A DNA stretch of 64,000 bases from a bacterium (GTDB lineage Bacteria > Patescibacteriota > Microgenomatia > Levybacterales > UBA12049): NCBI GenBank assembly GCA_021813145.1, contig JAKALS010000001.1, forward strand, positions 3,515 through 67,514, given 5' to 3'. The translations under genes were made by a program, and so were the position numbers. Position 1 is the stretch's first letter; every line of letters begins with the position of its first letter. The notes under the pieces are model-generated. The model was not told the DNA's origin. It worked only from the letters and a program-made list of their open reading frames with translations, and did not search any database. Shown here piece by piece: positions 25,943-53,409 of the stretch.

Positions 25943-26154
25943 ATTTTTTGAAGTGGGAAGTGAGATGTTCTTGAACTTGAACTAGGTACATGATCCGCAG
26001 CAGTTAGAGCAGGACCAGTTGCAATTGGCAATCCCGCAGCAGGAGGTAGCGCAAGCAATTAATCTTCCCTGGTTTAATTTATTAGGGGTGTAGAAAAGAT
26101 TAATCTTAAATCTCTTTTTTTGAATATCAGGTTTTTGATATTTGTTGTATTTTT

Positions 26155-26670
26155 TCATTGCTGCAAAATAAAAATATTTATGTCCAATGGTGCTTCATTT
26201 GGATCTATGGCGAGGTTCTCATTAAATTGGACCATTATTTTATCTCCGGGTTTTAAATCGCTTACTCCCACCTTTGAAGTTGTTCCATTTTTATCTTGAA
26301 GGTATACTGAGGTAGTTAATAAGTTTTTCCCCGTAATTGGGATGTTTGTCATATCTGCTTTATCGCCCTCCAGCACTATTAGTACTCCTTTATTGTCTTT
26401 TGACGGAATTATATTTTTTACTATTCCGTTAACATTTTGGGTAAAATATACATTTGCATTTTTATAAGACGGCCAGCTTTCAAGCATTTTTAGGGCAATA
26501 GGGTTAATTGCTAGGTTTGCTATGGGTATAGGGGTAGAGGTTGATGTCCCGATCGGGACCTGAGCTATTTTTTTAGGTTCTTCAAAAACAAAAAGAAATA
26601 CAACTTCCGAAAAAGCCGTAATAAGAAGAGCAATTATTATGGCAAGGAACACCTTGTTGAGCCTGGACAC
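26155..26670 (-). CDS. membrane-anchored protein, paralog B of the pair that flanks the RiPP operon
   Basis: MSRLNKVFLAIIIALLITAFSEVVFLFVF is nearly identical in pattern to the N-terminus of 30523-31044. Pro/Thr linker. Confidence 0.5.
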   Translation of the reverse strand: MSRLNKVFLAIIIALLITAFSEVVFLFVFEEPKKIAQVPIGTSTSTPIPIANLAINPIALKMLESWPSYKNANVYFTQNVNGIVKNIIPSKDNKGVLIVLEGDKADMTNIPITGKNLLTTSVYLQDKNGTTSKVGVSDLKPGDKIMVQFNENLAIDPNEAPLDINIFILQQ

Positions 26671-26722: not shown

Positions 26723-27487
26723 CTATTTCAAGGGGTTGCCAAAGGAAAAAGTGCTAATTACTGTTTCCTCAGTCCCGTCTACATCAAGTAATTTGTTTAG
26801 TGTGTCTTCTTTAAAACCCGCTACCTCGCAACACCCAAGATTTAGGGGAATGGAATTTAGGTAAAAATTTTGGCCGAGATGGCCTGTATCGATAAAAACA
26901 TGTCTATAACCGCGTTCTCCGTATTTAACCGTAGTTCTTGCGAAAACTCCGGTAACAATAATTATAAAAGCCGACCCTTTAACCCATTCTTGGTCAAAAT
27001 ATTTTCTGAAGTTTATCGTTTTATACGCGTAAATATGCTCAAGACTGTGAGTTCTTGGGTAATAATGATAAATTCCGTTAGGAAGTTCGGTATTAAAAGA
27101 TAAAAGGTAAATTTCAAGAGGGTATCTTCCTCCTCCCGAAGGATAAAATCTAAGAGGATACAAATTTTCATCAAGATTTTTTATTCCTGCGCTATGGTAC
27201 AGGAGAGAGGAAATTCTTTTAAGGTCAACCTTTTCTTTAGTGAATTCCCTTATGGACTCTCTTTTTAGAAGCGCTTTGGATAAGGCAACTTTAGGAAGTT
27301 CAATTTTGGGAAGCTTAATCTGTTCAAAACGGAAATAGCTTTTAAAATAAACTTTTTTCCACGTTTCGGGAGGTTTTTTTAAATCTTTTCTGAAGCGGAC
27401 ATTTTTTGATGCTTCGTAAAATTTTTGAAAAGGTGAGTTGTTGATGTTTAATAACTCCTCAATCTCGTTGTTATTTTTTATTTTCAT
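26723..27487 (-). CDS. SagB-type (McbC-like) FMN-dependent dehydrogenase of azoline-to-azole RiPP pathways
   Basis: RFYPSGGGRYPLEIY resembles the SagB hallmark PSAGGLYP. GYRHVFIDTGHLGQNFYL and CEVAGF are nitroreductase-fold segments. Confidence 0.65.
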   Translation of the reverse strand: MKIKNNNEIEELLNINNSPFQKFYEASKNVRFRKDLKKPPETWKKVYFKSYFRFEQIKLPKIELPKVALSKALLKRESIREFTKEKVDLKRISSLLYHSAGIKNLDENLYPLRFYPSGGGRYPLEIYLLSFNTELPNGIYHYYPRTHSLEHIYAYKTINFRKYFDQEWVKGSAFIIIVTGVFARTTVKYGERGYRHVFIDTGHLGQNFYLNSIPLNLGCCEVAGFKEDTLNKLLDVDGTEETVISTFSFGNPLK

Positions 27488-28767
27488 ATAAAAGGATGCG
27501 GAACTTGATTAAAATTCCCGGTTTCCACGTTAAAGAAATCCGCCACTTCTTTTATTCTTCCCGTCTTTAATTCTTTCTCTTTCTCATTCAAATAGAGAGG
27601 TTGAAGACGGGGAATAATGATTTTGAATACTTTATAGTCAATATCGGTAAAGTTATCTAAAGTTATGTCGGAATAATATGCATCCAGATTATTTTTCTTT
27701 AAAATTTTTTTCACTGTTTCCAGTTCTTTTACAGGGTTGTCTATGGGGGGTAGGGTTTTATATATCTTCGATTTTTCCGATTTTGTGAGAAAATCTAATT
27801 TGTCTTCCATTTGGGGCGTCATCCATAAAAGTGCCCTTTCAGCAATAGTTGGAACATGTTTTCTTATTTTTACATTTTTCTTTTTGTCAAATAGCTGCAA
27901 TTTCGCAAAGTATCTATTCATGAATGCCTCTTCCATGGCTCCCAGAATCGCAGTTTTTGTATCTAGGCTCGCTTTCATTCCCAGTGAAAGTTGGGGAAGA
28001 TTACCCGTTTCATCTAACAAAACGGTTAAGAATACAGGCACTTGAAGATTATTGGTAATATTAAAGATCAGGGGTTTTAGTCTGTATCTCTTGTAATAAT
28101 CGCCTAGGGATTTTATAGCGCTATCCTTAATGGAACTTATTTTTATCTTGGGGACCCTTATTTTATTAAGATATACCGTCATGAATGCATCTCTTTCTAT
28201 GACCTCATAAATTCCATTAAGAATAACTCTTGTGCTATCAAATCCTCCAGCTGCACCCGTACTTATACTTGAAGTCAGAGAAACTTCATTATCTTTTGGA
28301 AAGTTTAGATATAAAAGCTGGGCAGGAAGAAGTACCTGTTTATTGTCAAATAAATCGTGTCCCTTTATCCATCCGAACTTTGTTTCTTTTATTTTGTCCG
28401 TGTTTATATAAATTTGAGGATTTAAAGCATTAATTCTTTTCTTTTTCAGTTCATTATAGGTAGTATATGTAATCGATTTATAGCTATAGCAGCATTGGTT
28501 AAATCTTTCTGCAGCCTCGCTAAGACACTTCAATAGGGCGGTTTCTTTTGATGCATAAGATAATCCGTTTGCCCCGATTTTATATGCGTTGAGCTTATAT
28601 TCAGATTTCGGAAAAAAGGGATTACTTGAGTTATTAAGCATAACCGAATAGTAATTTAGCTTAGGTTCGTCATAAAAGTGGTTAGAGTTATTTGCTACTT
28701 TCTTAATAATTTTTTTTCCGTTAAGTTCTTTATAGAGTATTTTGATTAATTCCAAGTTATTTTCCAT
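27484..28767 (-). CDS. YcaO-domain cyclodehydratase (azoline-forming type)
   Basis: CLSEAAERFN and GIYEVIERDAF match the YcaO ATP/Mg-binding E-x-x-E-R motifs. SISTGAAGGFD. C-terminal ...VPHPFI is a proline-rich tail like the PxPxP of TOMM YcaOs. Confidence 0.7.
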   Translation of the reverse strand: MENNLELIKILYKELNGKKIIKKVANNSNHFYDEPKLNYYSVMLNNSSNPFFPKSEYKLNAYKIGANGLSYASKETALLKCLSEAAERFNQCCYSYKSITYTTYNELKKKRINALNPQIYINTDKIKETKFGWIKGHDLFDNKQVLLPAQLLYLNFPKDNEVSLTSSISTGAAGGFDSTRVILNGIYEVIERDAFMTVYLNKIRVPKIKISSIKDSAIKSLGDYYKRYRLKPLIFNITNNLQVPVFLTVLLDETGNLPQLSLGMKASLDTKTAILGAMEEAFMNRYFAKLQLFDKKKNVKIRKHVPTIAERALLWMTPQMEDKLDFLTKSEKSKIYKTLPPIDNPVKELETVKKILKKNNLDAYYSDITLDNFTDIDYKVFKIIIPRLQPLYLNEKEKELKTGRIKEVADFFNVETGNFNQVPHPFI

Positions 28768-29483
28768 TATTTTATGTAGTAAAAATTATCAAAATTTTTA
28801 ACAAATTCCATTAAATATTTTATTTGGCTGTTGTAGTTTTTAGAGTCTCCGCTGATTTTTTTCGCAAGGTTTTCGAGGATTTGTTCTTTATCTTCAATTT
28901 TACCTTCGGAAATATTTTTACTTTTTAAGGGGATATAGATATTTCCGATTGGGAATTTCCCGTGGTTTTTTTCAATAAAGGGATTTTCGATAAAAGGTGA
29001 TTGGTAAAAATAATATCTACCGTTTTCCTTTTTTATAATCGATATGTCATCGGTTAAAAATTTATTATGTATATTTTCTATGTCCTTAAAGAAGATTTCT
29101 GCTTTACCGTTTTTTTCTATTGCTATTGATTTTAGGAATAGCGTTTCATGTTTGAGAGATAATTTAAAGAGTATAAAATTAATTACCGTTTGGAATTGAA
29201 GAGGGTTTATGGAGTAGTAGGCGTTCATGCTATTTACTCCGGTTTCTTCAAAAAAACCCAAATAATATTTTTTACCTTTTCCATTGTAAAGTAAGTCCAT
29301 TCTCTTTTTTTCTATAAAATTTATCGTGTAGTCCGGTTTGTTGTTTGGATTTTTTATGATAAATCCTTTAAAAAAATCAATAATTTCATTTTTAATAGTA
29401 TCTCTTACAAAAGGCTTTTCGCTTTTGTTAAAAACTGTTTTAATATTAAATCCGCCGATTTTAAGAGTTAGTGAATTATTCAT
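28767..29483 (-). CDS. HPr-kinase-like family protein lacking a Walker A motif (paralog of 29489-30286)
   Basis: Collinear with 29489-30286 and 48517-49332 (shared NFILF/NFVLL region and C-terminal QIKYLMEF..FDNFY). No GxxGxGKST P-loop. Confidence 0.5.
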   Translation of the reverse strand: MNNSLTLKIGGFNIKTVFNKSEKPFVRDTIKNEIIDFFKGFIIKNPNNKPDYTINFIEKKRMDLLYNGKGKKYYLGFFEETGVNSMNAYYSINPLQFQTVINFILFKLSLKHETLFLKSIAIEKNGKAEIFFKDIENIHNKFLTDDISIIKKENGRYYFYQSPFIENPFIEKNHGKFPIGNIYIPLKSKNISEGKIEDKEQILENLAKKISGDSKNYNSQIKYLMEFVKNFDNFYYIK

Positions 29484-29488
29484 ATTCC

Positions 29489-30286
29489 CTAAAGAGTATT
29501 TTCCAATAATTTTATAAGGCCCTTGCTGCTTTTTGAGAAATAGAGAAAATAAAAGTTATCGAATTCGCTTATAAACTCCATAAGATATTTTATTTGAGTA
29601 GAGTAGTGCTCGTCTCTTGTAAAGATTTGTTTTGATATTAATTTTAGAACATACTCCTTGTTTGTGATTTTTTTGATTTCAAAATGCTTAGATTTTTTTA
29701 AAAAATACACTGAATTTACGGTTGTCCCACTGGAGGTCTTGGTGATCAGGTTTTTTTCCAGGATAGGCGATTGATACAAGTTATATTTGCTTGCCTCTTT
29801 TCTAATTAATGTTATGTCATCGGATAATTTGAAATACCTGTTTTTTAAAAGGTTTGCTGTTGTTGACTTTCCCGCTCCGCTTTTGCCAAGAAAAATATAT
29901 GCCTTGTTATTAATCTTTACTGCGGAAGAATGCAAAAACAAAATTTTATTTTTTTCACTTAATCTTAAAAGTACAAAATTTACCAGCGATTGAAATTGAA
30001 AAATATTTATAAGGTAATGGGTTTTGATTCTATTTTTTTTTATTATTTCGAAAAAAGCCAGATAATATTTCGATTTATTTTTTTCGCTTAATAACTCAAG
30101 TTTTTCTTCTTCCGTTATTTCGATAATAAAGTCGGGGCTTTTAGGTTTATTCTCTATAAAGTTAGCAAAGAAATCTTCAATATTATTTTTTAAAATTTTT
30201 TTTGCAACATTTAATTCAGTCTTTTTAAATATAATCTTTATGGAAAATCCGCCCACTAAAATATTTATAATTTCGGTATTTTTCAT
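29489..30286 (-). CDS. HPr kinase/phosphorylase C-terminal-domain-like putative peptide kinase
   Basis: FLGKSGAGKSTTANLLKNRYFKLSDD matches the HprK P-loop region [25 protein letters not shown]. Confidence 0.55.
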   Translation of the reverse strand: MKNTEIINILVGGFSIKIIFKKTELNVAKKILKNNIEDFFANFIENKPKSPDFIIEITEEEKLELLSEKNKSKYYLAFFEIIKKNRIKTHYLINIFQFQSLVNFVLLRLSEKNKILFLHSSAVKINNKAYIFLGKSGAGKSTTANLLKNRYFKLSDDITLIRKEASKYNLYQSPILEKNLITKTSSGTTVNSVYFLKKSKHFEIKKITNKEYVLKLISKQIFTRDEHYSTQIKYLMEFISEFDNFYFLYFSKSSKGLIKLLENTL

Positions 30287-30335
30287 TTTGGATATTGTAC
30301 CAAATTTATTTTTAATTAAAAGAAGGGGAGAAGGC

Positions 30336-30512
30336 TTATGTTGCTTTTATAGAGCTGCTTCCGCAACCGCAAGAACTCGCTGCATATACTTTTCCTACTG
30401 CTAGTCCATTAGCAGAATCTAGAAAACGTTTATTAAAAAAGAACATAGAAAAACCTTTTACGGTTCTCCTTCTTATCTTAGGCTTAATATAACGATTTTC
30501 AACGGTCTTCAT
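30336..30512 (-). CDS. candidate RiPP precursor peptide, 58 aa (not in the supplied ORF track)
   Basis: Minus-strand ATG at 30512 translates to MKTVENRYIKPKIRRRTVKGFSMFFFNKRFLDSANGLAVGKVYAASSCGCGSSSIKAT, with stop at 30336-30338. The Cys/Ser/Gly-rich C-terminal core is typical of azoline-type substrates. Sits immediately upstream of the HprK-like/YcaO/SagB genes on the same strand. An alternative start is the second Met (36-aa product). Confidence 0.5.
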   Translation of the reverse strand: MKTVENRYIKPKIRRRTVKGFSMFFFNKRFLDSANGLAVGKVYAASSCGCGSSSIKAT

Positions 30513-30522
30513 AATAGCTATT

Positions 30523-31044
30523 TTACTTTAAAAATCTTTGTATTTCTACGCTATCCGGCATTTTGCCATCGGATGTGTGCATATCGTAAGTAGCAGTTAT
30601 TATAATACTATTTCCGGATGAAAGATCACTAAGTTTTATGGGTGTTTGAACTCCGTTTGTCAGATCATAAACTTTTACGCTTTGAGAAAGCGGGGGCATA
30701 ATGTCATATTGAGTAACTTCTTTTCCTTTTACTCCCTCTAGATGAATTGTGAGTACATTATTGTTTGCCTGGGTAGGAAGATCTACCGAAGAGACTATGC
30801 CTGTTACATTTTGAGTAAAGGTGTAAGTTGAGTTGGTCCAATAGTGGGCAGTTTTTAGGTAATCTATCATGTAATTCGTTACGGCAGGGTTTTGAATAGG
30901 GGTAGGTGTAGGAGCTGTTAAGGCCTGAGGGGGAGTGGGAACAGTCTGGGTGGGTTTATAAACAAACAGAAATACCACCTCTGCAAGAGCAGTAAAAAGA
31001 AGAGCTATAATCACAGCTAAAAATATTTTATTCAGCTTTGACAT
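30523..31044 (-). CDS. membrane-anchored protein, paralog A of the pair that flanks the RiPP operon
   Basis: MSKLNKIFLAVIIALLFTALAEVVFLFVY. Pro/Thr linker. 10 nt upstream of the precursor ORF. Confidence 0.5.
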   Translation of the reverse strand: MSKLNKIFLAVIIALLFTALAEVVFLFVYKPTQTVPTPPQALTAPTPTPIQNPAVTNYMIDYLKTAHYWTNSTYTFTQNVTGIVSSVDLPTQANNNVLTIHLEGVKGKEVTQYDIMPPLSQSVKVYDLTNGVQTPIKLSDLSSGNSIIITATYDMHTSDGKMPDSVEIQRFLK

Positions 31045-46843: not shown

Positions 46844-47918
46844 TTTAACAAAAGAAGATTTTAAAGAGATTAAAAAGACATTTGATTCTTCATGGATTTC
46901 CTCCAAAAGCCCCGTTGTTGAGGAGTTTGAAAAAGCGTTTGCCAAAAAGGTAAGCAAAACAAAATACGCGGTCTCCGTAAACAGCGGTACATCGGCTTTA
47001 TTTCTGGCTTTAAAAAGTTTGGGAGTAGGCGAGGGAGACGAGGTAATAATTCCTTCCCTTACAATGATTGCCTCCATTAATGCCGTAACCTTAACGGGGG
47101 CAACACCGGTTCTTGTAGACTGCAGGTCTTTTGAGGATTTTATCTTTGATTTGGAAGAAGTGGAAAAAAAGATAACAGAAAAAACAAAAGTAATAATGCC
47201 CGTACACCTTTATGGATACTCCTGCGAAATGGATAAGCTTGTAAAACTTGCCAAAGAAAAAAAGATTTATATCGTAGAAGACGCGGCAGAAAGCATGGGC
47301 GCAACTTATAAAGCGAAATTTTTGGGAAGTTTTGGAGACGCTTCCTGCTTTTCTTTATACTCCAATAAAATCATTACGACGGGAAACGGGGGAATGGTTG
47401 CCACTAATAACAAAAAGCTTTTTGACCTTTTAAGAAAGATAAGGTTTTTTGATTTTAACGAAGATTCCCATTTTACCCACCATGTCATCGGCTATAACAT
47501 GGTTCTTTCCGGCCTTTCGGCCGCCCTGGGCCTTTCCCAGACCAAAAGGTTTGATAAGATGCTTGCAAAAAGAAGGGAAATCTTCAAAACCTATAAAAAA
47601 TATCTTATAAAAGGGGACAAATATTTTATTCCCGAGCCTTTAAAAAACCAGAACCCCAATTTCTGGTTTCCCGCAGTAATTTTTAAAAGCAAAAAGACAA
47701 AAGAAAAAGTAAGACTGGGGCTTTTAAAAAGGGGGATAGAAACAAGAGTTTTTTTCCGTCCGCTTAATACCCAGCCCGTATATAAAGATTTGTTTAAAGG
47801 TCAAAAATACGAAAAAGCGGAGTTTTTATATTCGAACGGTTTACTTTTGCCTTCTTTTTACGAGCTTAAGGAAAGTCAGATAAAAGAGATAACTTCTTTA
47901 ATAAATTCTTTTGTTTAG
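46806..47918 (+). CDS. DegT/DnrJ/EryC1/StrS-family PLP-dependent sugar aminotransferase
   Basis: SWISSKSPVVEEFEKAFA...AVSVNSGTSALFLAL pattern. A Lys-containing SxxSNK-like block (SLYSNKIITTG). Confidence 0.75.
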   Translation: MRNSYRIPVSKPNLTKEDFKEIKKTFDSSWISSKSPVVEEFEKAFAKKVSKTKYAVSVNSGTSALFLALKSLGVGEGDEVIIPSLTMIASINAVTLTGATPVLVDCRSFEDFIFDLEEVEKKITEKTKVIMPVHLYGYSCEMDKLVKLAKEKKIYIVEDAAESMGATYKAKFLGSFGDASCFSLYSNKIITTGNGGMVATNNKKLFDLLRKIRFFDFNEDSHFTHHVIGYNMVLSGLSAALGLSQTKRFDKMLAKRREIFKTYKKYLIKGDKYFIPEPLKNQNPNFWFPAVIFKSKKTKEKVRLGLLKRGIETRVFFRPLNTQPVYKDLFKGQKYEKAEFLYSNGLLLPSFYELKESQIKEITSLINSFV

Positions 47919-48513
47919 TATGTTTCAAAGACCTGTTGCTCTTATTCTGCTTATATTATCCCTGCCGTTTCTTACTGTATTTTTTATCCTGATAAAAATT
48001 TCCTCAAAAGGCCCGTTTATCTTCAAGCAAAAAAGAACGGGTAAGGGCAAAAAAGTTTTTACCATGTATAAAATAAGGACAATGGTGGACAAGGCTGAAG
48101 GCCTTAAGAAGAAATACAAAAAACTAAACGAAGTTGACGGGCCCGTTTTTAAGATAAAGGACGATCCCAGGTTTACAAAAGTAGGGAAAATCCTTTCCTA
48201 TACGGGCTTGGACGAACTCCCGCAATTTTTTAATGTTTTAAAAGGCGATATGGCATTCGTTGGGCCGAGGCCTTTGCCTGTCGATGAGGCAAAAAAGGTA
48301 CCAAAAAAATACGGGGAAAGATTTAGCGTATTGCCCGGTATAACTTCGCCCTGGGTTGTAGGGGGCCAGCACAGGCTTAAATTCAGGGAGTGGATGGAGC
48401 TGGATGTAGAATATTCGAAAAGAAGATCTAGGGCTTATGACTTACGAATATCATTATTGACGTTTTTGCTGATACTAAAACTGATCGGAAGAAAGTTTTT
48501 GGGAAAGGCATAG
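47911..48513 (+). CDS. bacterial sugar transferase (polyprenyl-phosphate hexose-1-phosphate transferase, WbaP/PglC-like)
   Basis: Single N-terminal transmembrane segment. GPVFKIKDDPRFTKVGKILSYTGLDELPQFFNVLKGDMAFVGPRP is the family hallmark. Confidence 0.8.
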   Translation: MFSMFQRPVALILLILSLPFLTVFFILIKISSKGPFIFKQKRTGKGKKVFTMYKIRTMVDKAEGLKKKYKKLNEVDGPVFKIKDDPRFTKVGKILSYTGLDELPQFFNVLKGDMAFVGPRPLPVDEAKKVPKKYGERFSVLPGITSPWVVGGQHRLKFREWMELDVEYSKRRSRAYDLRISLLTFLLILKLIGRKFLGKA

Positions 48514-48516
48514 CTT

Positions 48517-49332
48517 ATGGAAAAAATATATCTTAATATCTGCGGTTTTAATATTCTTTTAAAAGTTCATTACACCGATCAGCCCTATCATCTTGATAAT
48601 TTTGTCGGAATGGTTAAAAAAAACTATTCGGGTTTTATTAAAAGGGGAAAGGGAAAGGTTGATTTTACGGTTCATGTGGATTACACGGGCTCCGTCCTTT
48701 TAAAAATAGATAAAAAAAAGAACTCCGAAGTGGAGTATTTTGATATGAGGTCCTCCTATCTGGATATCCCCAAAAGGACACTTTTTTTTAATAATCCTCC
48801 CGGGGGATTAGATTTCGAATTTGGGCTTTCCATAATCTTAAATAAATATCTTATTCCCAACAGTAACGGTATGGCTCTTCACGGTTCGGCGGTTTCGTAT
48901 AAAAATAAAGCATTTATTTTTGAAGGAAGAAACGGGGCCGGGAAATCAACAACAGCCCAGATGCTCAACGGTCTTTGCAATATTTCTGCGGACGATTCGA
49001 TAGTTATAAGAAAGATAAAAGGAAGATTTTACCTGTTCCAGACAATAATCCACGATAAAAACTATAATTTTAAAAAGGGATGGCAGTCCTATACGGTAGA
49101 CAGGATCTTTTTCATAAAGAAGGCAAAAGAATACAAAATTCAAAAGATAGAAAACAAAAATATGATCTTAAACAAGATCTTAAAACAGATTTTTACATAT
49201 CCCGATATGATTAAAAGACAGTTTCCTTTACTGGTGGAGTTTGCAAACACAAAAGATTTTTATTATCTTTATGTAAAGAAAGACGAGAAAGAATTCAAAA
49301 AGTTTTTTAAAAAAGAAATTTTAAAGATATGA
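48517..49332 (+). CDS. HPr-kinase-like putative peptide kinase (third paralog)
   Basis: ALHGSAVSYKNKAFIFEGRNGAGKSTTAQMLNGLCNISADD is collinear with the P-loop region of 29489-30286. Confidence 0.55.
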   Translation: MEKIYLNICGFNILLKVHYTDQPYHLDNFVGMVKKNYSGFIKRGKGKVDFTVHVDYTGSVLLKIDKKKNSEVEYFDMRSSYLDIPKRTLFFNNPPGGLDFEFGLSIILNKYLIPNSNGMALHGSAVSYKNKAFIFEGRNGAGKSTTAQMLNGLCNISADDSIVIRKIKGRFYLFQTIIHDKNYNFKKGWQSYTVDRIFFIKKAKEYKIQKIENKNMILNKILKQIFTYPDMIKRQFPLLVEFANTKDFYYLYVKKDEKEFKKFFKKEILKI

Positions 49333-49589
49333 AATACAAAGTAAATAAAGGTTTTATAATTCAAAAAGTAGGGGATAGTTCGACGATTTTTGACGGGGAA
49401 AAATCGGAACTTTATACTTTTAATAAAACTGCTACCTTGATTTTTGAAAAAATAAAGTCAGGCTGGGAAAGCGCAAAAATAATTGAATATCTTTCAAAAT
49501 TTTATTCGATTAAAAAAGAAGAGGCGGAAAAAGATTTTAACGAATTTGTATCCGAACTTATAAAATCAAAGATTCTTTCTAAAAAATAA
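49329..49589 (+). CDS. PqqD-family RiPP recognition element (RRE) protein
   Basis: 86 aa. FNKTATLIFEKIKSGWESAKIIEYLSKFYSIKKEEAEKDFNEFVSELIKSKIL follows the PqqD pattern LNETAAxIxELxDG..t..eIi..L...y.v..e....Dv..fl..L...gli. ATGA-coupled to the upstream kinase-like gene. Confidence 0.65.
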   Translation: MKYKVNKGFIIQKVGDSSTIFDGEKSELYTFNKTATLIFEKIKSGWESAKIIEYLSKFYSIKKEEAEKDFNEFVSELIKSKILSKK

Positions 49590-50801
49590 TTTCTCCCGGA
49601 TTTTCTTTTCAACAACCCAATATACGGAATAGACGACTTCTTTATTTGTAAATACAAAAGCCTTTCTGTAAAAAGGGAGAGGGGAGAGGAAAAAAATTGT
49701 CTTGAACCTTTTTACGCCTCCCGTTACTCTTTCGTCCTGGTTAAGTATGTCTATTCCCCTAATCATTTTATTCATATATCCGTTTTTTTCCGGCTTAATT
49801 TTGTTTAAAACGGAAGAGGGAACGGGAGTCTTGTAATACTTTTTAAGAAGAAAAAGAGCGGGGTAAATAAAATTTTCAAGTTTATATTCTTTTATGATCC
49901 TTAGAGCGTTTTCTCCGATTTTATCTTTTTTAATTACGGTGTTTATAAATTCATAACGGTAAGTTCCTTCAAAATTATGGTGAAAAAGGTGAAGGCAAAG
50001 GTAAACGGCAAGATTATCTTTTGAAAGAACGGGAAAATTCTCTCCGTTTACCGTTATTTGTCTTTTGCTATTTAAAAAGTCCGAAGTAAGAGAGTCTACG
50101 AGTTTTTGCGGATAAAGGCTATTCAACTCGCCAAGCTGTGTCATTAAAAAAACAATTTCGAAATGTACGTCAAAAACCACGGCAAATCCGTTTACGTATT
50201 TTATAAAAGTTATTTCCGATTCCTTGTTTTTTAACTGCTTATGCTTTTTGGAAAGGCTGTCTTCGGTTTGCTCATATCCGAATTCTTTTAAAATCCTTTT
50301 AACTTTATTAAAATCGTTTCTTTTAACAAGTATGTCGCAGTCGGCGTAAATTCTCCTGGGGTGGGTCTTTTCGAAATATAAATGAAGGGGAAGGCCCTTT
50401 AGAAAAACAACGTCTATGCCTTTTTTCTCCAGGATTTTTTTAATTTTTATTATTTCCAAAAAATAGAGGCTGGACTGCATAAGATAGAGACTTTCGGGGC
50501 TGAATATTTCTTTACCCCTTTTAACATTTTCCACAATCCCGAGTATGTTTTTTGCCGAAACTCTTTTATCGGAAGTATGGTTGTTATCGCCTTTGGTTAT
50601 AACATAGTCTTTGCCTTTATAAATTACTCTGTGGGTAAAATAAGTATTGCCGTTTTTTACCGTTATTATGTCGTTGGTTTTAATTCTTTTAAAGGGGATT
50701 TTTTTAAGGTATAAAATATCCCCGTCCAAAAGAAGGGGATACATGCTGTTGCCGAAAGTCTTAAGCCCTCTTTTTAAGAAATCTCTATTATTTATATCCA
50801 T
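49566..50801 (-). CDS. fusion protein: N-terminal S24/S26 (signal-peptidase-I / LexA-like) serine peptidase domain plus C-terminal uncharacterised nucleotidyltransferase (NTP_transf_5-like) domain
   Basis: GNSMYPLLLDGDIL (Ser box), FTHRVIYKGKDYVITKGDNNHTSDKR (Lys/GDN boxes). VVFLKGLPLHLYF...RRIYADCDILV in the C-terminal domain. Confidence 0.5.
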   Translation of the reverse strand: MDINNRDFLKRGLKTFGNSMYPLLLDGDILYLKKIPFKRIKTNDIITVKNGNTYFTHRVIYKGKDYVITKGDNNHTSDKRVSAKNILGIVENVKRGKEIFSPESLYLMQSSLYFLEIIKIKKILEKKGIDVVFLKGLPLHLYFEKTHPRRIYADCDILVKRNDFNKVKRILKEFGYEQTEDSLSKKHKQLKNKESEITFIKYVNGFAVVFDVHFEIVFLMTQLGELNSLYPQKLVDSLTSDFLNSKRQITVNGENFPVLSKDNLAVYLCLHLFHHNFEGTYRYEFINTVIKKDKIGENALRIIKEYKLENFIYPALFLLKKYYKTPVPSSVLNKIKPEKNGYMNKMIRGIDILNQDERVTGGVKRFKTIFFLSPLPFYRKAFVFTNKEVVYSVYWVVEKKIREKLFFRKNL

Positions 50802-50852
50802 TCTTTTGAATATTCTAGCATAAGGATAAACGAAGTAGTAAAATAAGCCGTA

Positions 50853-52673
50853 ATGGCAGGCCTTATTAAAAATGAAAGGATAGGTAAAATCCTTGGGACG
50901 GCAAAAACCTCAAAACGCCTTCTTTTGTTTTTGTGGAAAATTGACAAGCCACTTTTTTTGACAAGTTTTATCGTTGCCGTTGTTCCCGCGTTTATTCCTT
51001 TTGCGAATGCGTACATTTACAAATTGATAATCGATTTTATAGTTTCTTCTTTCGGGAAGCCTAACGTAAGTCTTTCTTTCCTTTTTATTTTAATGGGTTT
51101 TCGTCTCGGCACCTTTGTTTTGCAGGAAGTATTTTTTTCTTTGCAAAGTTATGTAGATCTTTTGGTATGGACAAAACTTCCGGTTGAGCTTTACAGAGTT
51201 GTACTTTTAAAACTTTCGGAACTGAATTTACAGTATTTTGAGGACAGCAACTTTAAAGACATGCTCCAACGCGTAAAAGAAAGCTATACATGGAGGCCTC
51301 TTAATATGATCTCTGCCCTTTTTTATACCATGCAAAGCCTTACAGGCCTTATTCTTGCAGTTTTAATAATTGCCACCCTAAATATTTTCCTCGGACTTTT
51401 TATTCTTTTGATAGCCGTTCCCGTATTCTTTAACCAGACAAAGTATGCAAAAACAATATGGGGTCTATGGGAAGAGCATTCTCCGTACAGAAAAAAATTC
51501 TGGTATATATCCGACCTTATCCAAAACGGACAGAGCGCAAAAGAGATGAAGATTTTCCAGACAGCAAAAAATTTTATAGGCGAACTGGACAAAATACAAA
51601 AAAAGTTTGTGAGCCAAAATTCCAAAGTCGGGAAAAGAAGATTTTTAACGACAATGATTTTTGACATAGGCGGAATAGTTGTTTATTTTGCCATAGAACT
51701 TTTTATAGTCCTTTTAACTGTAGCCGGAAAGATTACCCTCGGAAGCCTTACTTACTTTACTTTTGTAGTGGCAAACTTCCAGCAGGCTGTTAACGGACTA
51801 TTCAGGAATATGTCCCAGGTCTATACACAAACTCTTTTTGTCGAGGATATATTTAGGGTCCTTGACGCAAAGCCCACTATTACAACTTCTAAAAGAGCCG
51901 TAAAGCAGGATATACATAAAGCTCCTTTAATAGAATTTAAAAATGTCAATTTTTCCTATCCCGGATCCAAAAAAGCCGTGCTAAAGAATTTTTCCCTTAA
52001 GATTAATCCCGGAGAAAAAGTGGCATTTGTAGGCGAAAACGGCGCCGGTAAGACAACAATAGTAAAACTTTTGGCACGTTTTTATGATACAGATTCGGGG
52101 GAAATACTTATAAACGGCATCAATATAAAAGATATAGACCTTGTTTCCTGGTACAGGACTTTGGGGGTTATTTTTCAGGATTTTATAAAGTACGAATATA
52201 CCCTGCGGGAAAATATTTATTTCGGAAAGACTTTTGAAAAGGAAGACATAAAAGAAATCAGAAAGGCGGCGGGAAAGTCCGGTGCCGATAAGGTGGCAAA
52301 CAGTCTTGAAAAAGGATACGAACAGATTCTGGGAAAAACATTCGAAGGCGGCGCGGACCTATCGGTGGGAGAGTGGCAAAAAGTGGCACTTGCAAGGGCT
52401 TTTTTCCGTAACGCCCCCGTCCTTATTCTGGACGAGCCTACTTCTGCCATTGATCCGAAGTCCGAAAACGAGATATTCGAAAAAGTGGAGGATTTGGGTA
52501 AAAACAAGACAGTCCTTATTATTTCCCACAGGTTTTCAACAGTTAGAAACGCGGATACGATTTATGTAATAGAAAAAGGAAGAATAAAAGAGGCGGGAAA
52601 CCACGAAAAGTTAATGAAACAAAAAGGGATTTACGAAAAGCTTTTTACGATACAGGCCAAAAGGTACAGATAA
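50853..52673 (+). CDS. ABC transporter, fused permease/ATPase (type I exporter, MsbA-like) with an atypical signature motif
   Basis: Six N-terminal transmembrane segments. Walker A GENGAGKTT. Signature LSVGEWQK instead of LSGGQ. Walker B ILDEPTSAID. Confidence 0.8.
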   Translation: MAGLIKNERIGKILGTAKTSKRLLLFLWKIDKPLFLTSFIVAVVPAFIPFANAYIYKLIIDFIVSSFGKPNVSLSFLFILMGFRLGTFVLQEVFFSLQSYVDLLVWTKLPVELYRVVLLKLSELNLQYFEDSNFKDMLQRVKESYTWRPLNMISALFYTMQSLTGLILAVLIIATLNIFLGLFILLIAVPVFFNQTKYAKTIWGLWEEHSPYRKKFWYISDLIQNGQSAKEMKIFQTAKNFIGELDKIQKKFVSQNSKVGKRRFLTTMIFDIGGIVVYFAIELFIVLLTVAGKITLGSLTYFTFVVANFQQAVNGLFRNMSQVYTQTLFVEDIFRVLDAKPTITTSKRAVKQDIHKAPLIEFKNVNFSYPGSKKAVLKNFSLKINPGEKVAFVGENGAGKTTIVKLLARFYDTDSGEILINGINIKDIDLVSWYRTLGVIFQDFIKYEYTLRENIYFGKTFEKEDIKEIRKAAGKSGADKVANSLEKGYEQILGKTFEGGADLSVGEWQKVALARAFFRNAPVLILDEPTSAIDPKSENEIFEKVEDLGKNKTVLIISHRFSTVRNADTIYVIEKGRIKEAGNHEKLMKQKGIYEKLFTIQAKRYR

Positions 52674-52674
52674 T

Positions 52675-53409
52675 TTATTTTCTTCTTCTTGAGGTTTTTT
52701 TACTGTTGCTCCACAAAAGCGCCAAAAGCAGCATTGCTACAATTATTAAGAAAATCAGCGCAAAGACCTTTTGTGTATATAAAGAAGGTCCCGATGATGT
52801 TGTTTTTGCGGGAACATAGGTTCCCGGAGTGGGAGGAGTAAGCGAAGAATCATTTTTGGCAATAATTTTATTTATTCCGACCATAAAAGCACTGTCCTGA
52901 ATCGGGATTTGAGTGTTTAAAAGAATATGTCCCGTAAAGCTTTTTGAATTCGCAACGTCGATATTTCCCACGGAACCCATGGGATAGAAGTATGTGTTTG
53001 TCCCAACATAGTTGTTGTAAACCTGGGCAGAAATTTGATTAGAAGGTGTAACTACTTTCCCCTTTGAATTTATAAAGACCAGGTAGTACGAGGCAATAGG
53101 AGACTGGTCTTTTGGGAGAATTGTCTTAAGTTTGTCCCAGTTTCCTTCGAACACATATACGTTTACATTATCGTTAAAGCTTTGAGGCGGAACGGTAATT
53201 GTTGTAAACGGAAAAAGATTTATTGTTTTAGGCGAAGTTTCCCCGTACTGTATAAAGCTTGTGGCAACGGGTTTTGTCATGTCAAAAAGAGGATTATTCG
53301 GAATGGTTGCGGGAGGAGTCTGTGCAAAGGAAGTTTTTCCCAAAAGCAGGAAGGCAAGTATGAGAGGTAAAACTACAAGCAATTTTATTTTTTTCATGCT
53401 CTTATTCAA
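52675..53409 (-). CDS. hypothetical secreted protein with a C-terminal transmembrane anchor and basic tail
   Basis: Signal peptide KIKLLVVLPLILAFLLLG. C-terminal VFALIFLIIVAMLLLALLW followed by SNSKKTSRRRK. Confidence 0.45.
   Translation of the reverse strand: MNKSMKKIKLLVVLPLILAFLLLGKTSFAQTPPATIPNNPLFDMTKPVATSFIQYGETSPKTINLFPFTTITVPPQSFNDNVNVYVFEGNWDKLKTILPKDQSPIASYYLVFINSKGKVVTPSNQISAQVYNNYVGTNTYFYPMGSVGNIDVANSKSFTGHILLNTQIPIQDSAFMVGINKIIAKNDSSLTPPTPGTYVPAKTTSSGPSLYTQKVFALIFLIIVAMLLLALLWSNSKKTSRRRK

Follow-up and report, generated by a model that had tools for sequence, protein, structure and literature searches.

A small open reading frame beside a YcaO operon

The DNA analysed here is a 64,000-nucleotide stretch of contig JAKALS010000001.1 (assembly GCA_021813145.1, positions 3,515 to 67,514 of the forward strand) from a bacterium of the Levybacterales; this whole stretch is referred to as the window. 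On its minus strand lies an operon with the gene order TM173, ORF-A, ScmC1, ScmC2, YcaO, SagB, TM171 and ORF-B, and the present work concerns the small open reading frame (ORF) ORF-A. An original prediction, made from the letters of the window alone, had proposed ORF-A as an unannotated gene for a candidate precursor peptide, with a core resembling that of cyclodehydratase substrates. ORF-A spans 30336..30512 (including the stop codon), with the ATG at 30510–30512 and the TAA at 30336–30338, and encodes a peptide of 58 aa, MKTVENRYIKPKIRRRTVKGFSMFFFNKRFLDSANGLAVGKVYAASSCGCGSSSIKAT. It is identified by its translation, its orthologues, its ratio of nonsynonymous to synonymous substitution (dN/dS) and an independent hidden Markov model (HMM) of its family. 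When 30336–30512 was read again on the minus strand, the predicted translation was matched exactly. The reported 10-nt gap to the upstream gene also agrees, since the 173-aa TM173 gene (30523–31044) has its stop 10 nt before ORF-A, while the gap to the first HprK-like gene (29489–30286), given as 50 nt, measures 49 nt to the ATG of that gene.

The AT-rich window contains many ORFs of 50–60 codons and the length of ORF-A alone is therefore not significant. The second methionine, Met23, had been suggested as an alternative start with a purine tract AAAGG 9 nt upstream. A peptide beginning there would indeed have 36 aa, but the tract is AAAAGG and ends 7 nt before that ATG. In any case, this tract carries no weight because a Shine-Dalgarno sequence is absent from most genes here, and is also missing before the first ATG of ORF-A. 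More importantly, Y8, K10, P11, I13 and the K-K-[IV]-K stretch of the leader all lie upstream of Met23, where the family has Phe, and the alignment of the independent family HMM on ORF-A starts at Met1. The Met23 start, which would fall inside the conserved leader, was rejected on these grounds. Judged from its sequence, ORF-A is a ribosomal precursor peptide that is translated from the first ATG. The description of ORF-A as unannotated held only in part: the exact 58-aa protein has already been gene-called in a public collection (NCBI, Logan and ENA assemblies), where it is unnamed in every source.

Conservation of ORF-A and size of its family

A syntenic orthologue of ORF-A, MKTTKDCYIKPKVKKKQVKGLSMFFFNRRFLDSANGLEIGQVYAASSCGCGSSTIKAQ, is found at L001:621–797, in a locus whose kinase is 79% identical to that of the window. 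The two peptide genes share 72% protein identity and 76% DNA identity, and 23 of their 42 nucleotide differences are at third codon positions. The dN value of 0.158 and dS value of 1.23 give a dN/dS of 0.13, compared to 0.08 for the adjacent SagB gene. ORF-A is under purifying selection and is a real, conserved gene. In a more distant cluster, where the kinase is 33% identical, the peptide MIKKSVYHTPSIKVKKVKLSFFYSHRRFVDSFNELGGMDFEGQTLMASSCSGCSSLKS is again encoded right behind a 173-aa membrane protein. Absence of the ORF or of its Cys/Ser core from syntenic loci of relatives had been named beforehand as a possible refutation; both are kept, with ORF-A and an ASSC(G)GC(G)SS core recurring in L001, L008/L009 and P0001.

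A word-indexed search with ORF-A as a single sequence gave only a 98% identical copy, and a profile search was therefore required to reveal the family. A five-peptide profile run against 1.84 billion representative proteins (clusters at 50% identity) gave 110 matches at E ≤ 1e-3, two of which are repeat-protein false positives. HMM scans of fetched loci revealed further members, mostly uncalled, in L002, L006, L014 and L015. The search for similar small ORFs that the original prediction had recommended thus shows family members recurring across many other loci. The independent HMM was built from 106 family members, none of them from the window or its close orthologues. Applied to every one of the window's 1,830 stop-to-stop ORFs, it matched ORF-A with E = 4.7e-18 and ORF-B, the second precursor described below, with E = 6e-4; the next, unrelated ORF had E = 1.5.

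Neither ORF-A nor ORF-B has a match in Pfam-A or NCBIfam (r20). When 40 family members were compared to the same collections, only fused Hint and Peptidase_S74 domains matched a model, and the family peptide profile gave no match among solved structures. The named relatives are Candidatus Levybacteria. By profile similarity, ORF-A is a member of a large uncatalogued family of precursors that comprises at least 110 sequence clusters, and its members so far come from uncultured bacteria, Candidatus Levybacteria among them.

The general form of a precursor of a peptide that is made by the ribosome and modified after translation (RiPP), i.e. a small ORF in which the leader is conserved and the core varies, next to modification enzymes, is seen here, with family peptides adjoining the enzymes in the window and in L001, L002, L006, L008, L010 and L015. 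The view of ORF-A as a genuine precursor that lies directly upstream of the YcaO operon, its leader conserved and its core of the Cys/Ser type, is supported by the orthologues, the family HMM and the gene context.

Leader and core of the precursor family

Column conservation over 113 family members places the predicted leader of ORF-A at residues 1–43 (30384..30512, minus strand), with a boundary that we infer to within about one residue. The predicted core, AASSCGCGSSSIKAT, comprises residues 44–58 (30339..30383, minus strand) and is defined by conservation of the A-[QA]-S junction. The family leader, which is conserved and has 43–44 residues, shows the consensus M-K-K-x-K-Y-x-K-P-x-I-K-x-K-K-[IV]-K-x-[NS]-F-F...R-F-x-D-S-F-N...V-Y-A-[QA]-S and is followed by a hypervariable Gly/Ser/Cys core. 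Conserved columns include Y8 (113/113), P11 (112/113), D32 (99/111), K10 (97/113) and I13 (82/113, or 107/113 if I, V and L are counted together). The strongly kept columns comprise K10, I13, K16-K17, [IV]18, K19, [NS]22, F23-F24, R29, [FW]30, D32, [SQ]33, [ND]35 and L37. ORF-A matches the family at every key position: besides the motif Y8-I-K-P11-K-I13 (30474–30491), its leader holds the basic stretch, F24, R29-F30, D32-S33, N35, L37 and V42-Y43.

The form YxxPx[L/V/I] is the motif bound by the RiPP recognition elements (RREs) of lasso peptides and of linear polyphosphorylated peptides (LPPs) (PMC13381572). The LPPs, made by lppA-K-B-S-D-N of Paenibacillus alginolyticus, have been described as restricted to Bacillota (Popov et al., Nat Commun 2026, PMC13381572). 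ORF-A had been said to have a basic/hydrophobic leader. The leader is not generic in this way; it carries the lasso/LPP-type RRE motif YxxPx[I/V] together with the A-[QA]-S junction.

At the junction, the family has the pattern [VLI]42-[YLF]43-A44-[QAS]45-S46, where 93/112 members have A44 and 69/110 have S46, with mostly Q or A at position 45. The triplet AQS accounts for 41 of 73 members, AAS for 11 and ASS for 8. Conservation collapses past position 47. The cores have a median length of 20 residues and contain 19% Gly, 18% Ser and 10% Cys. Cores of the ORF-A type (A-S-S-C-x-G-C-x-S-S-x-K with a short tail) are also found in P0033, P0050, P0061, P0077 and P0145. Ser46 of ORF-A aligns with Ser3 of the LPP core, and Cys48 and Cys50 are candidate azole sites.

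A different architecture is seen in ∼15% of family members, where the leader and a short core are fused directly to a Hint/intein-like domain (CFLxGT...HNYFA..LVHN), and in a few members the fusion partner is a self-cleaving chaperone domain, Peptidase_S74. Examples of one or other fusion are P0039, P0041, P0059, P0064, P0069, P0075, P0092, P0140, L067:8098–8700, L074:15595–16167 and L057:5107–5673, among others. From the identity of the fused domains, the core may be released autocatalytically or activated C-terminally.

Genes of the ORF-A operon

Upstream of ORF-A, TM173 (30523..31044, minus strand) encodes a protein of 173 aa in which, as read from sequence features, an N-terminal membrane anchor is joined by a Pro/Thr linker to a beta-rich domain. 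It has no match in Pfam or NCBIfam, and its AlphaFold2 (AF2) model has a pLDDT (predicted local distance difference test) value of 57, which is too poor for use of the fold. A membrane-anchored paralogue of 171 aa, TM171 (26155..26670, minus strand), shares 37% identity and the same three-part layout with TM173, and its stop codon overlaps the start of ORF-B (ATGA). Each of the two genes stands directly before a precursor, and homologues are found beside a precursor in L001, L002, L008, L010 and L040.

The intergenic stretch between ORF-A and the kinase (30287..30335, minus strand) is nearly identical to its L001 counterpart, even though the flanking genes have dS values above 1. Within it, TGGTACAAT ends 7 nt before the kinase ATG; the element is probably an extended −10 promoter that would give a leaderless transcript. 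In many genes of the window, no Shine-Dalgarno sequence is present and TAnAAT stands about 5–9 nt before the start codon, which suggests widespread leaderless transcripts. A consensus scan of 25.7–31.7 kb for promoters and terminators gave counts at the level of shuffled sequence. Rfam identified two tRNAs only, with nothing near ORF-A.

Downstream, ScmC1 (29489..30286, minus strand) is a 265-aa protein of the HprK/PEPCK-fold P-loop kinase type. It gives weak Hpr_kinase_C, HprK_rel_A and ScmC matches and has a precomputed assignment to PF27840 (ScmC). Its AF2 model (pLDDT 93) resembles the PEPCK and HprK/P folds, and its conserved features include H119, the GxxGAGKST P-loop and D156-D157. Its paralogue ScmC2 (28767..29483, minus strand; 39% identity to ScmC1) has no P-loop, the GKSGAGKS segment being deleted, and is likely to be a pseudo-kinase. 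The ScmC2 reading frame overlaps the start of YcaO, and the L001 orthologue is 67% identical.

The 427-aa YcaO protein (27484..28767, minus strand; Pfam YcaO E = 3.9e-46) appears to be of the SagD type. Its nearest solved structures are MJ1094, TruD, LynD and MusD, and a scan of genome contigs with YcaO alone found no relative. SagB (26723..27487, minus strand), which is translationally coupled to YcaO, encodes a 254-aa FMN dehydrogenase of the SagB family, with a TIGR03605 score of 146 bits (cut-off 78.4) and a match to Pfam Nitroreductase. It travels with YcaO in L001, L002, L006, L008, L010 and L015.

At the end of the operon lies ORF-B (25982..26158, minus strand), which encodes a second 58-aa precursor, MKKYNKYQKPDIQKKRFKINLFYTPNKLNQGRLIACATSCCGIANCNWSCSNCCGSCT, recognized by its homology to ORF-A and by the family HMM. 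The original prediction had missed this precursor, the more Cys-rich of the two. The ORF-B leader is homologous to that of ORF-A, but its core, ACATSCCGIANCNWSCSNCCGSCT, is far richer in cysteine, with nine residues in the last 24 compared to two in ORF-A. Unlike ORF-A, ORF-B has not been called in public gene sets. Its homologue P0046 is found in the same context of a TM protein and Wzy_C in L040/L041.

An LPP-type gene set 17–20 kb away

The LPP system's core genes encode LppS (a SipW-like signal peptidase with catalytic Ser/His/Asp), LppB (a discrete RRE), LppK (an HprK-like kinase), LppN (a nucleoside triphosphate [NTP] transferase) and LppD (an MsbA-like exporter) (PMC13381572). In the window, a gene set of this type lies at 48517–52673. 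The position of LppK is taken by ScmC3 (48517..49332, plus strand), the third HprK-like kinase here, whose P-loop is intact and which has an ScmC match and 43% identity to ScmC1 over 135 aa. It is followed in the LppB/B1 position by a discrete PqqD-type RRE (49329..49589, plus strand; Pfam PqqD E = 2e-8), which matches an HMM of cluster-linked PqqD proteins with E = 6e-32 and also NCBIfam models of lasso PqqD chaperones. Among solved structures, the PqqD profile found only the RREs of lasso peptides and LPPs (TfuB1, TbiB1, PbaB1 and LppB).

The next gene (49566..50801, minus strand) encodes a 411-aa fusion of a signal peptidase I of the archaeal type with an NTP_transf_5 domain, identified by TIGR02228, Peptidase_S24 and NTP_transf_5 matches. 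Its TIGR02228 score is 53 bits (cut-off 51.85), there is a weak SipW match, and GNSMYP, THRV and GDNN motifs are present. The signal peptidase of the gene set is thus present in fused form, and the protein is predicted to combine the functions of LppS and LppN. The same fusion is found in L002, L003, L010, L014 and most of the RRE-anchored loci considered below. An MsbA-like ABC exporter of 606 aa, identified by domain matches, occupies the LppD position (50853..52673, plus strand). Directly before ScmC3 is a gene for a polyprenyl-phosphate sugar-phosphate transferase, Bac_transf (47911..48513, plus strand), which was assigned by a domain match and recurs beside kinase and RRE genes.

Beside the exporter, at 52675–53409 (minus strand), a 244-aa protein without a family match has an N-terminal signal-like segment, a Pro/Thr-rich region, a C-terminal hydrophobic helix and a basic tail, SNSKKTSRRRK; its C-terminus resembles a cell-surface sorting signal. 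The region from about 24000 to 50000 has a low GC content (mostly 28–36%, compared to about 40% in the flanks). It contains glycan genes: two Wzy_C, two PMT_2, glycosyltransferases of the GT1, GT2 and GT4 types, a DegT aminotransferase, Bac_transf, a carbamoyltransferase and GH10. Unrelated loci, too, have Wzy_C and Bac_transf beside the peptide system, which recalls the placement of LPP clusters in capsule loci.

Association of YcaO and SagB with the peptide family

We counted these genes in 33 loci anchored on the RRE. NTP_transf_5/S24 was found in 24 of these, Bac_transf in 20, ScmC in 19, YcaO in 6 and SagB in 4, and a family peptide (E < 1e-3) was present in 12. In L002, L008 and L010 the family peptide, YcaO, SagB, ScmC, PqqD and NTP_transf_5 are contiguous; the 7.6-kb contig L006 has the same genes with the exception of NTP_transf_5.

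The frame of carbamoyltransferase and Wzy_C genes varies by presence and absence of the two precursors. L001 (9.6 kb) has ORF-A with ScmC1/2, YcaO and SagB and lacks the ORF-B pair. L040/L041 have an ORF-B-type pair in the same frame and lack ORF-A and the YcaO module, and the window has both. Gene context thus makes a good case for a link of ORF-A to the kinase/YcaO/SagB module.

A contig labelled 'uncultured Gammaproteobacteria' (L014, CAYIFB010000001.1) has PqqD, the signal peptidase::NTP transferase fusion, ScmC and a family peptide, but neither YcaO nor SagB is present within 16.7 kb. The contig could be mis-binned, or it could represent a genuine variant that lacks YcaO.

A proposed hybrid pathway and its alternatives

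We think it likely that ORF-A is the precursor for a hybrid LPP-like/azole pathway, in which a kinase, PqqD, signal peptidase and NTP transferase would work together with YcaO and SagB to carry out chemistry predicted from the genes. PqqD would bind the leader through Y8-x-x-P11-x-I13 and present the peptide to the enzymes. An HprK-like (ScmC) kinase would phosphorylate Ser46 at the third position of the A-A-S junction, in the manner of LppK acting on Ser3 of the AQS core start. YcaO would cyclodehydrate Cys48 and Cys50, and possibly neighbouring serines, and SagB would oxidize the azolines to azoles, converting Cys48 and Cys50 to thiazoles. The signal-peptidase-like domain would remove the leader at or beside V42-Y43-A44, the fused NTP transferase may decorate or extend the phosphate, and the ABC transporter would export a product of roughly 14–15 residues. 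More speculatively, ScmC2, whose gene is coupled to YcaO, could act as a scaffold that replaces the E1-like/ThiF-like partner.

Several observations weigh against this proposal. First, we infer every modification of ORF-A from gene content and motifs. Second, the best NCBIfam match of YcaO, TIGR03604, scores 198 bits, below the cut-off of 219, and no E1-like, ThiF-like or TfuA partner was found among the scanned ORFs (most window ORFs of at least 120 aa); the activity and chemistry of YcaO are uncertain for these reasons. Third, five peptide-bearing RRE-anchored loci of 10 kb or longer have no YcaO or SagB and neither does L014 with its family peptide, so Cys/Ser-rich cores do not need YcaO. 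Conversely, L010 has YcaO and a precursor core without any cysteine. Fourth, the RRE, peptidase and exporter genes of the window lie 17–20 kb from ORF-A. Finally, the likeness to LPPs is imperfect in sequence. The PqqD profile is nearer to actinobacterial lasso B1 proteins (E = 6.6e-9) than to LppB (E = 0.011). Outside YxxPx[I/V] and AQS, the family leader departs from the LPP consensus; it exceeds the LPP leader by about 17 residues, includes an added FF..RFxDSFN block and has V-Y ahead of the junction where LppA has F-E-T. Since peptide-bearing loci without YcaO and SagB exist, we regard the YcaO/SagB module as an accessory to an LPP-like core. ORF-A adjoins the YcaO operon, but the family is tied more tightly to the kit of kinase, RRE, signal peptidase and NTP transferase than to YcaO, with YcaO and SagB present in only part of the loci.

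The same distribution leads to the strongest alternative, in which ORF-A serves an LPP-like phospho route only and YcaO/SagB acts on another substrate (e.g. ORF-B) or on nothing nearby. The linkage of the family to RRE, kinase and NTP-transferase genes in many loci without YcaO is what would be expected here, and the nine cysteines of ORF-B might appear a better target than the two of ORF-A. However, it is ORF-A that is gained and lost together with the YcaO module, as both are present without ORF-B in L001 whereas the ORF-B type occurs without YcaO in L040/L041. The L008 cluster also has the same ASSCSGCSS core type beside YcaO and SagB. We therefore consider this explanation unlikely.

A second alternative concerns the product of YcaO, which could be backbone thioamides or amidines instead of azol(in)es. 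The best solved relative of YcaO by sequence is the thioamide-forming MJ1094 (E = 1.2e-12), and YcaO is without an E1-like or ThiF-like cyclodehydratase partner. Yet the SagD-type model gives 198 bits compared to 81 bits for the McrA-thioamidation model, and no TfuA was found among the scanned ORFs. In addition, the gene coupled to YcaO, which co-travels with it in L001, L002, L006, L008, L010 and L015, encodes a SagB-family dehydrogenase. The known role of this enzyme family is azoline oxidation. Thioamide or amidine formation is thus very improbable.

It is scarcely credible that ORF-A is a chance ORF, an untranslated spacer or a small Sec-secreted protein with an ordinary signal peptide: ORFs of 50–60 codons are common, no Shine-Dalgarno sequence precedes the ATG and V-Y-A looks like an AxA signal-peptidase site, but the missing Shine-Dalgarno is usual for genes of the window, dN/dS is 0.13 and the family HMM gives E = 4.7e-18, while a Sec signal peptide was rejected because the hydrophobic stretch, FSMFFF, runs to only some six residues before K28, R29 and D32, unlike a Sec h-region, and because the invariant YxKPxI has no role in Sec signals and corresponds to the RRE motif.

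If the hybrid pathway proposed for ORF-A is correct, it takes the LPP type into a lineage distant from Bacillota and joins it with azole chemistry. A precursor family without a curated model recurs with a fixed enzyme set in Levybacteria-type genomes. YcaO seems to function here in the absence of its usual partner, and some leader-core peptides are fused to self-cleaving Hint or S74 domains. The leader HMM could be used for genome mining, and a core of 14–15 residues is short enough for practical reconstitution.

A broader and more doubtful proposal is that these loci represent a separate RiPP class of candidate phyla radiation (CPR) bacteria. In such a class, one leader scaffold would combine a core of LPP-like phospho(glyco)sylation with an azole module (YcaO/SagB) that is optional and with C-terminal domains that cleave themselves (Hint, Peptidase_S74), and the P-loop-less HprK-fold protein would replace the canonical E1/ThiF partner of YcaO. 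The product would pass to the Bac_transf/Wzy_C machinery and the ∼170-aa partner, and would be a component of the cell envelope, not a free antibiotic. We hold this as a tentative idea and think it rather unlikely.

Comparison with known systems

Linear azol(in)e-containing peptides and thiazole/oxazole-modified microcins (LAP/TOMM; SagBCD, McbBCD and plantazolicin) resemble the window in having a YcaO coupled to a SagB-family dehydrogenase, beside small precursors with Cys/Ser/Gly-rich cores. They differ in having an E1-like (C) or Ocin-ThiF-like (F) partner that bears the RRE, which is absent from the related clusters as well as from the ORFs scanned in the window. Here, the leader is probably read by the discrete lasso-type PqqD, and HprK-fold proteins adjoin YcaO instead.

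The HprK-like proteins of the window belong to the Pfam family of ScmC, a member of the SynChlorMet cassette (TIGR04249/PF27840), and as in that cassette they occur with a PqqD homologue in a peptide-maturation context. However, the NCBIfam ScmC score is 27 bits here compared to a cut-off of 125, and radical SAM/SPASM enzymes are missing. A literature search on ScmC/PqqD returned unrelated acronyms only, and one for YcaO together with HPr kinase found no paper. The literature on YcaO in CPR bacteria/Patescibacteria gave passing mentions only, and no paper was found on a RiPP pathway of this kind in CPR bacteria.

In phosphorylated and phosphoglycosylated lasso peptides (paeninodin and pseudomycoidin), a B1-type PqqD RRE reads [Y/W]xxPx[L/V/I] (PMC8498205, PMC13381572). 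An HPr-kinase homologue, a nucleotidyltransferase and a B1-type PqqD RRE are common to these systems and the window. The lasso kinase, however, targets a C-terminal serine. For the lasso macrolactam synthetase and B2 protease, there was no Asn-synthase-like or transglutaminase-like match among the scanned window ORFs.

The closest comparison is with the LPP system. The LPP precursor has the leader YxxPxVLxHQxIxFET, which is cut after T−1, and the core of LppA starts AQSNWK; LppB presents the leader to LppS, LppK polyphosphorylates Ser3 of the core, and the LPP clusters sit inside polysaccharide loci (PMC13381572). The words 'YcaO' and 'nitroreductase' do not occur in the accessible part of the supplementary text of that paper. 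In the peptide family described here, the HQxIxFET block is absent and the spacing from Y to the junction is 33–52 residues, compared to 15 in LPPs. The cores are short and Gly/Ser/Cys-rich, the peptidase is fused to the NTP transferase, and the named relatives are Candidatus Levybacteria. A YcaO and SagB module and extra kinase paralogues are added, and a membrane-anchored protein of ∼170 aa accompanies each precursor. Alongside these differences, the window holds every type of LPP core gene and has the setting of a polysaccharide locus. It shares with LPP loci the presence of several precursors with a conserved N-terminus and a variable C-terminus, the YxxPx[V/I] motif in the leader and the A-Q-S junction, which is A-A-S in ORF-A.

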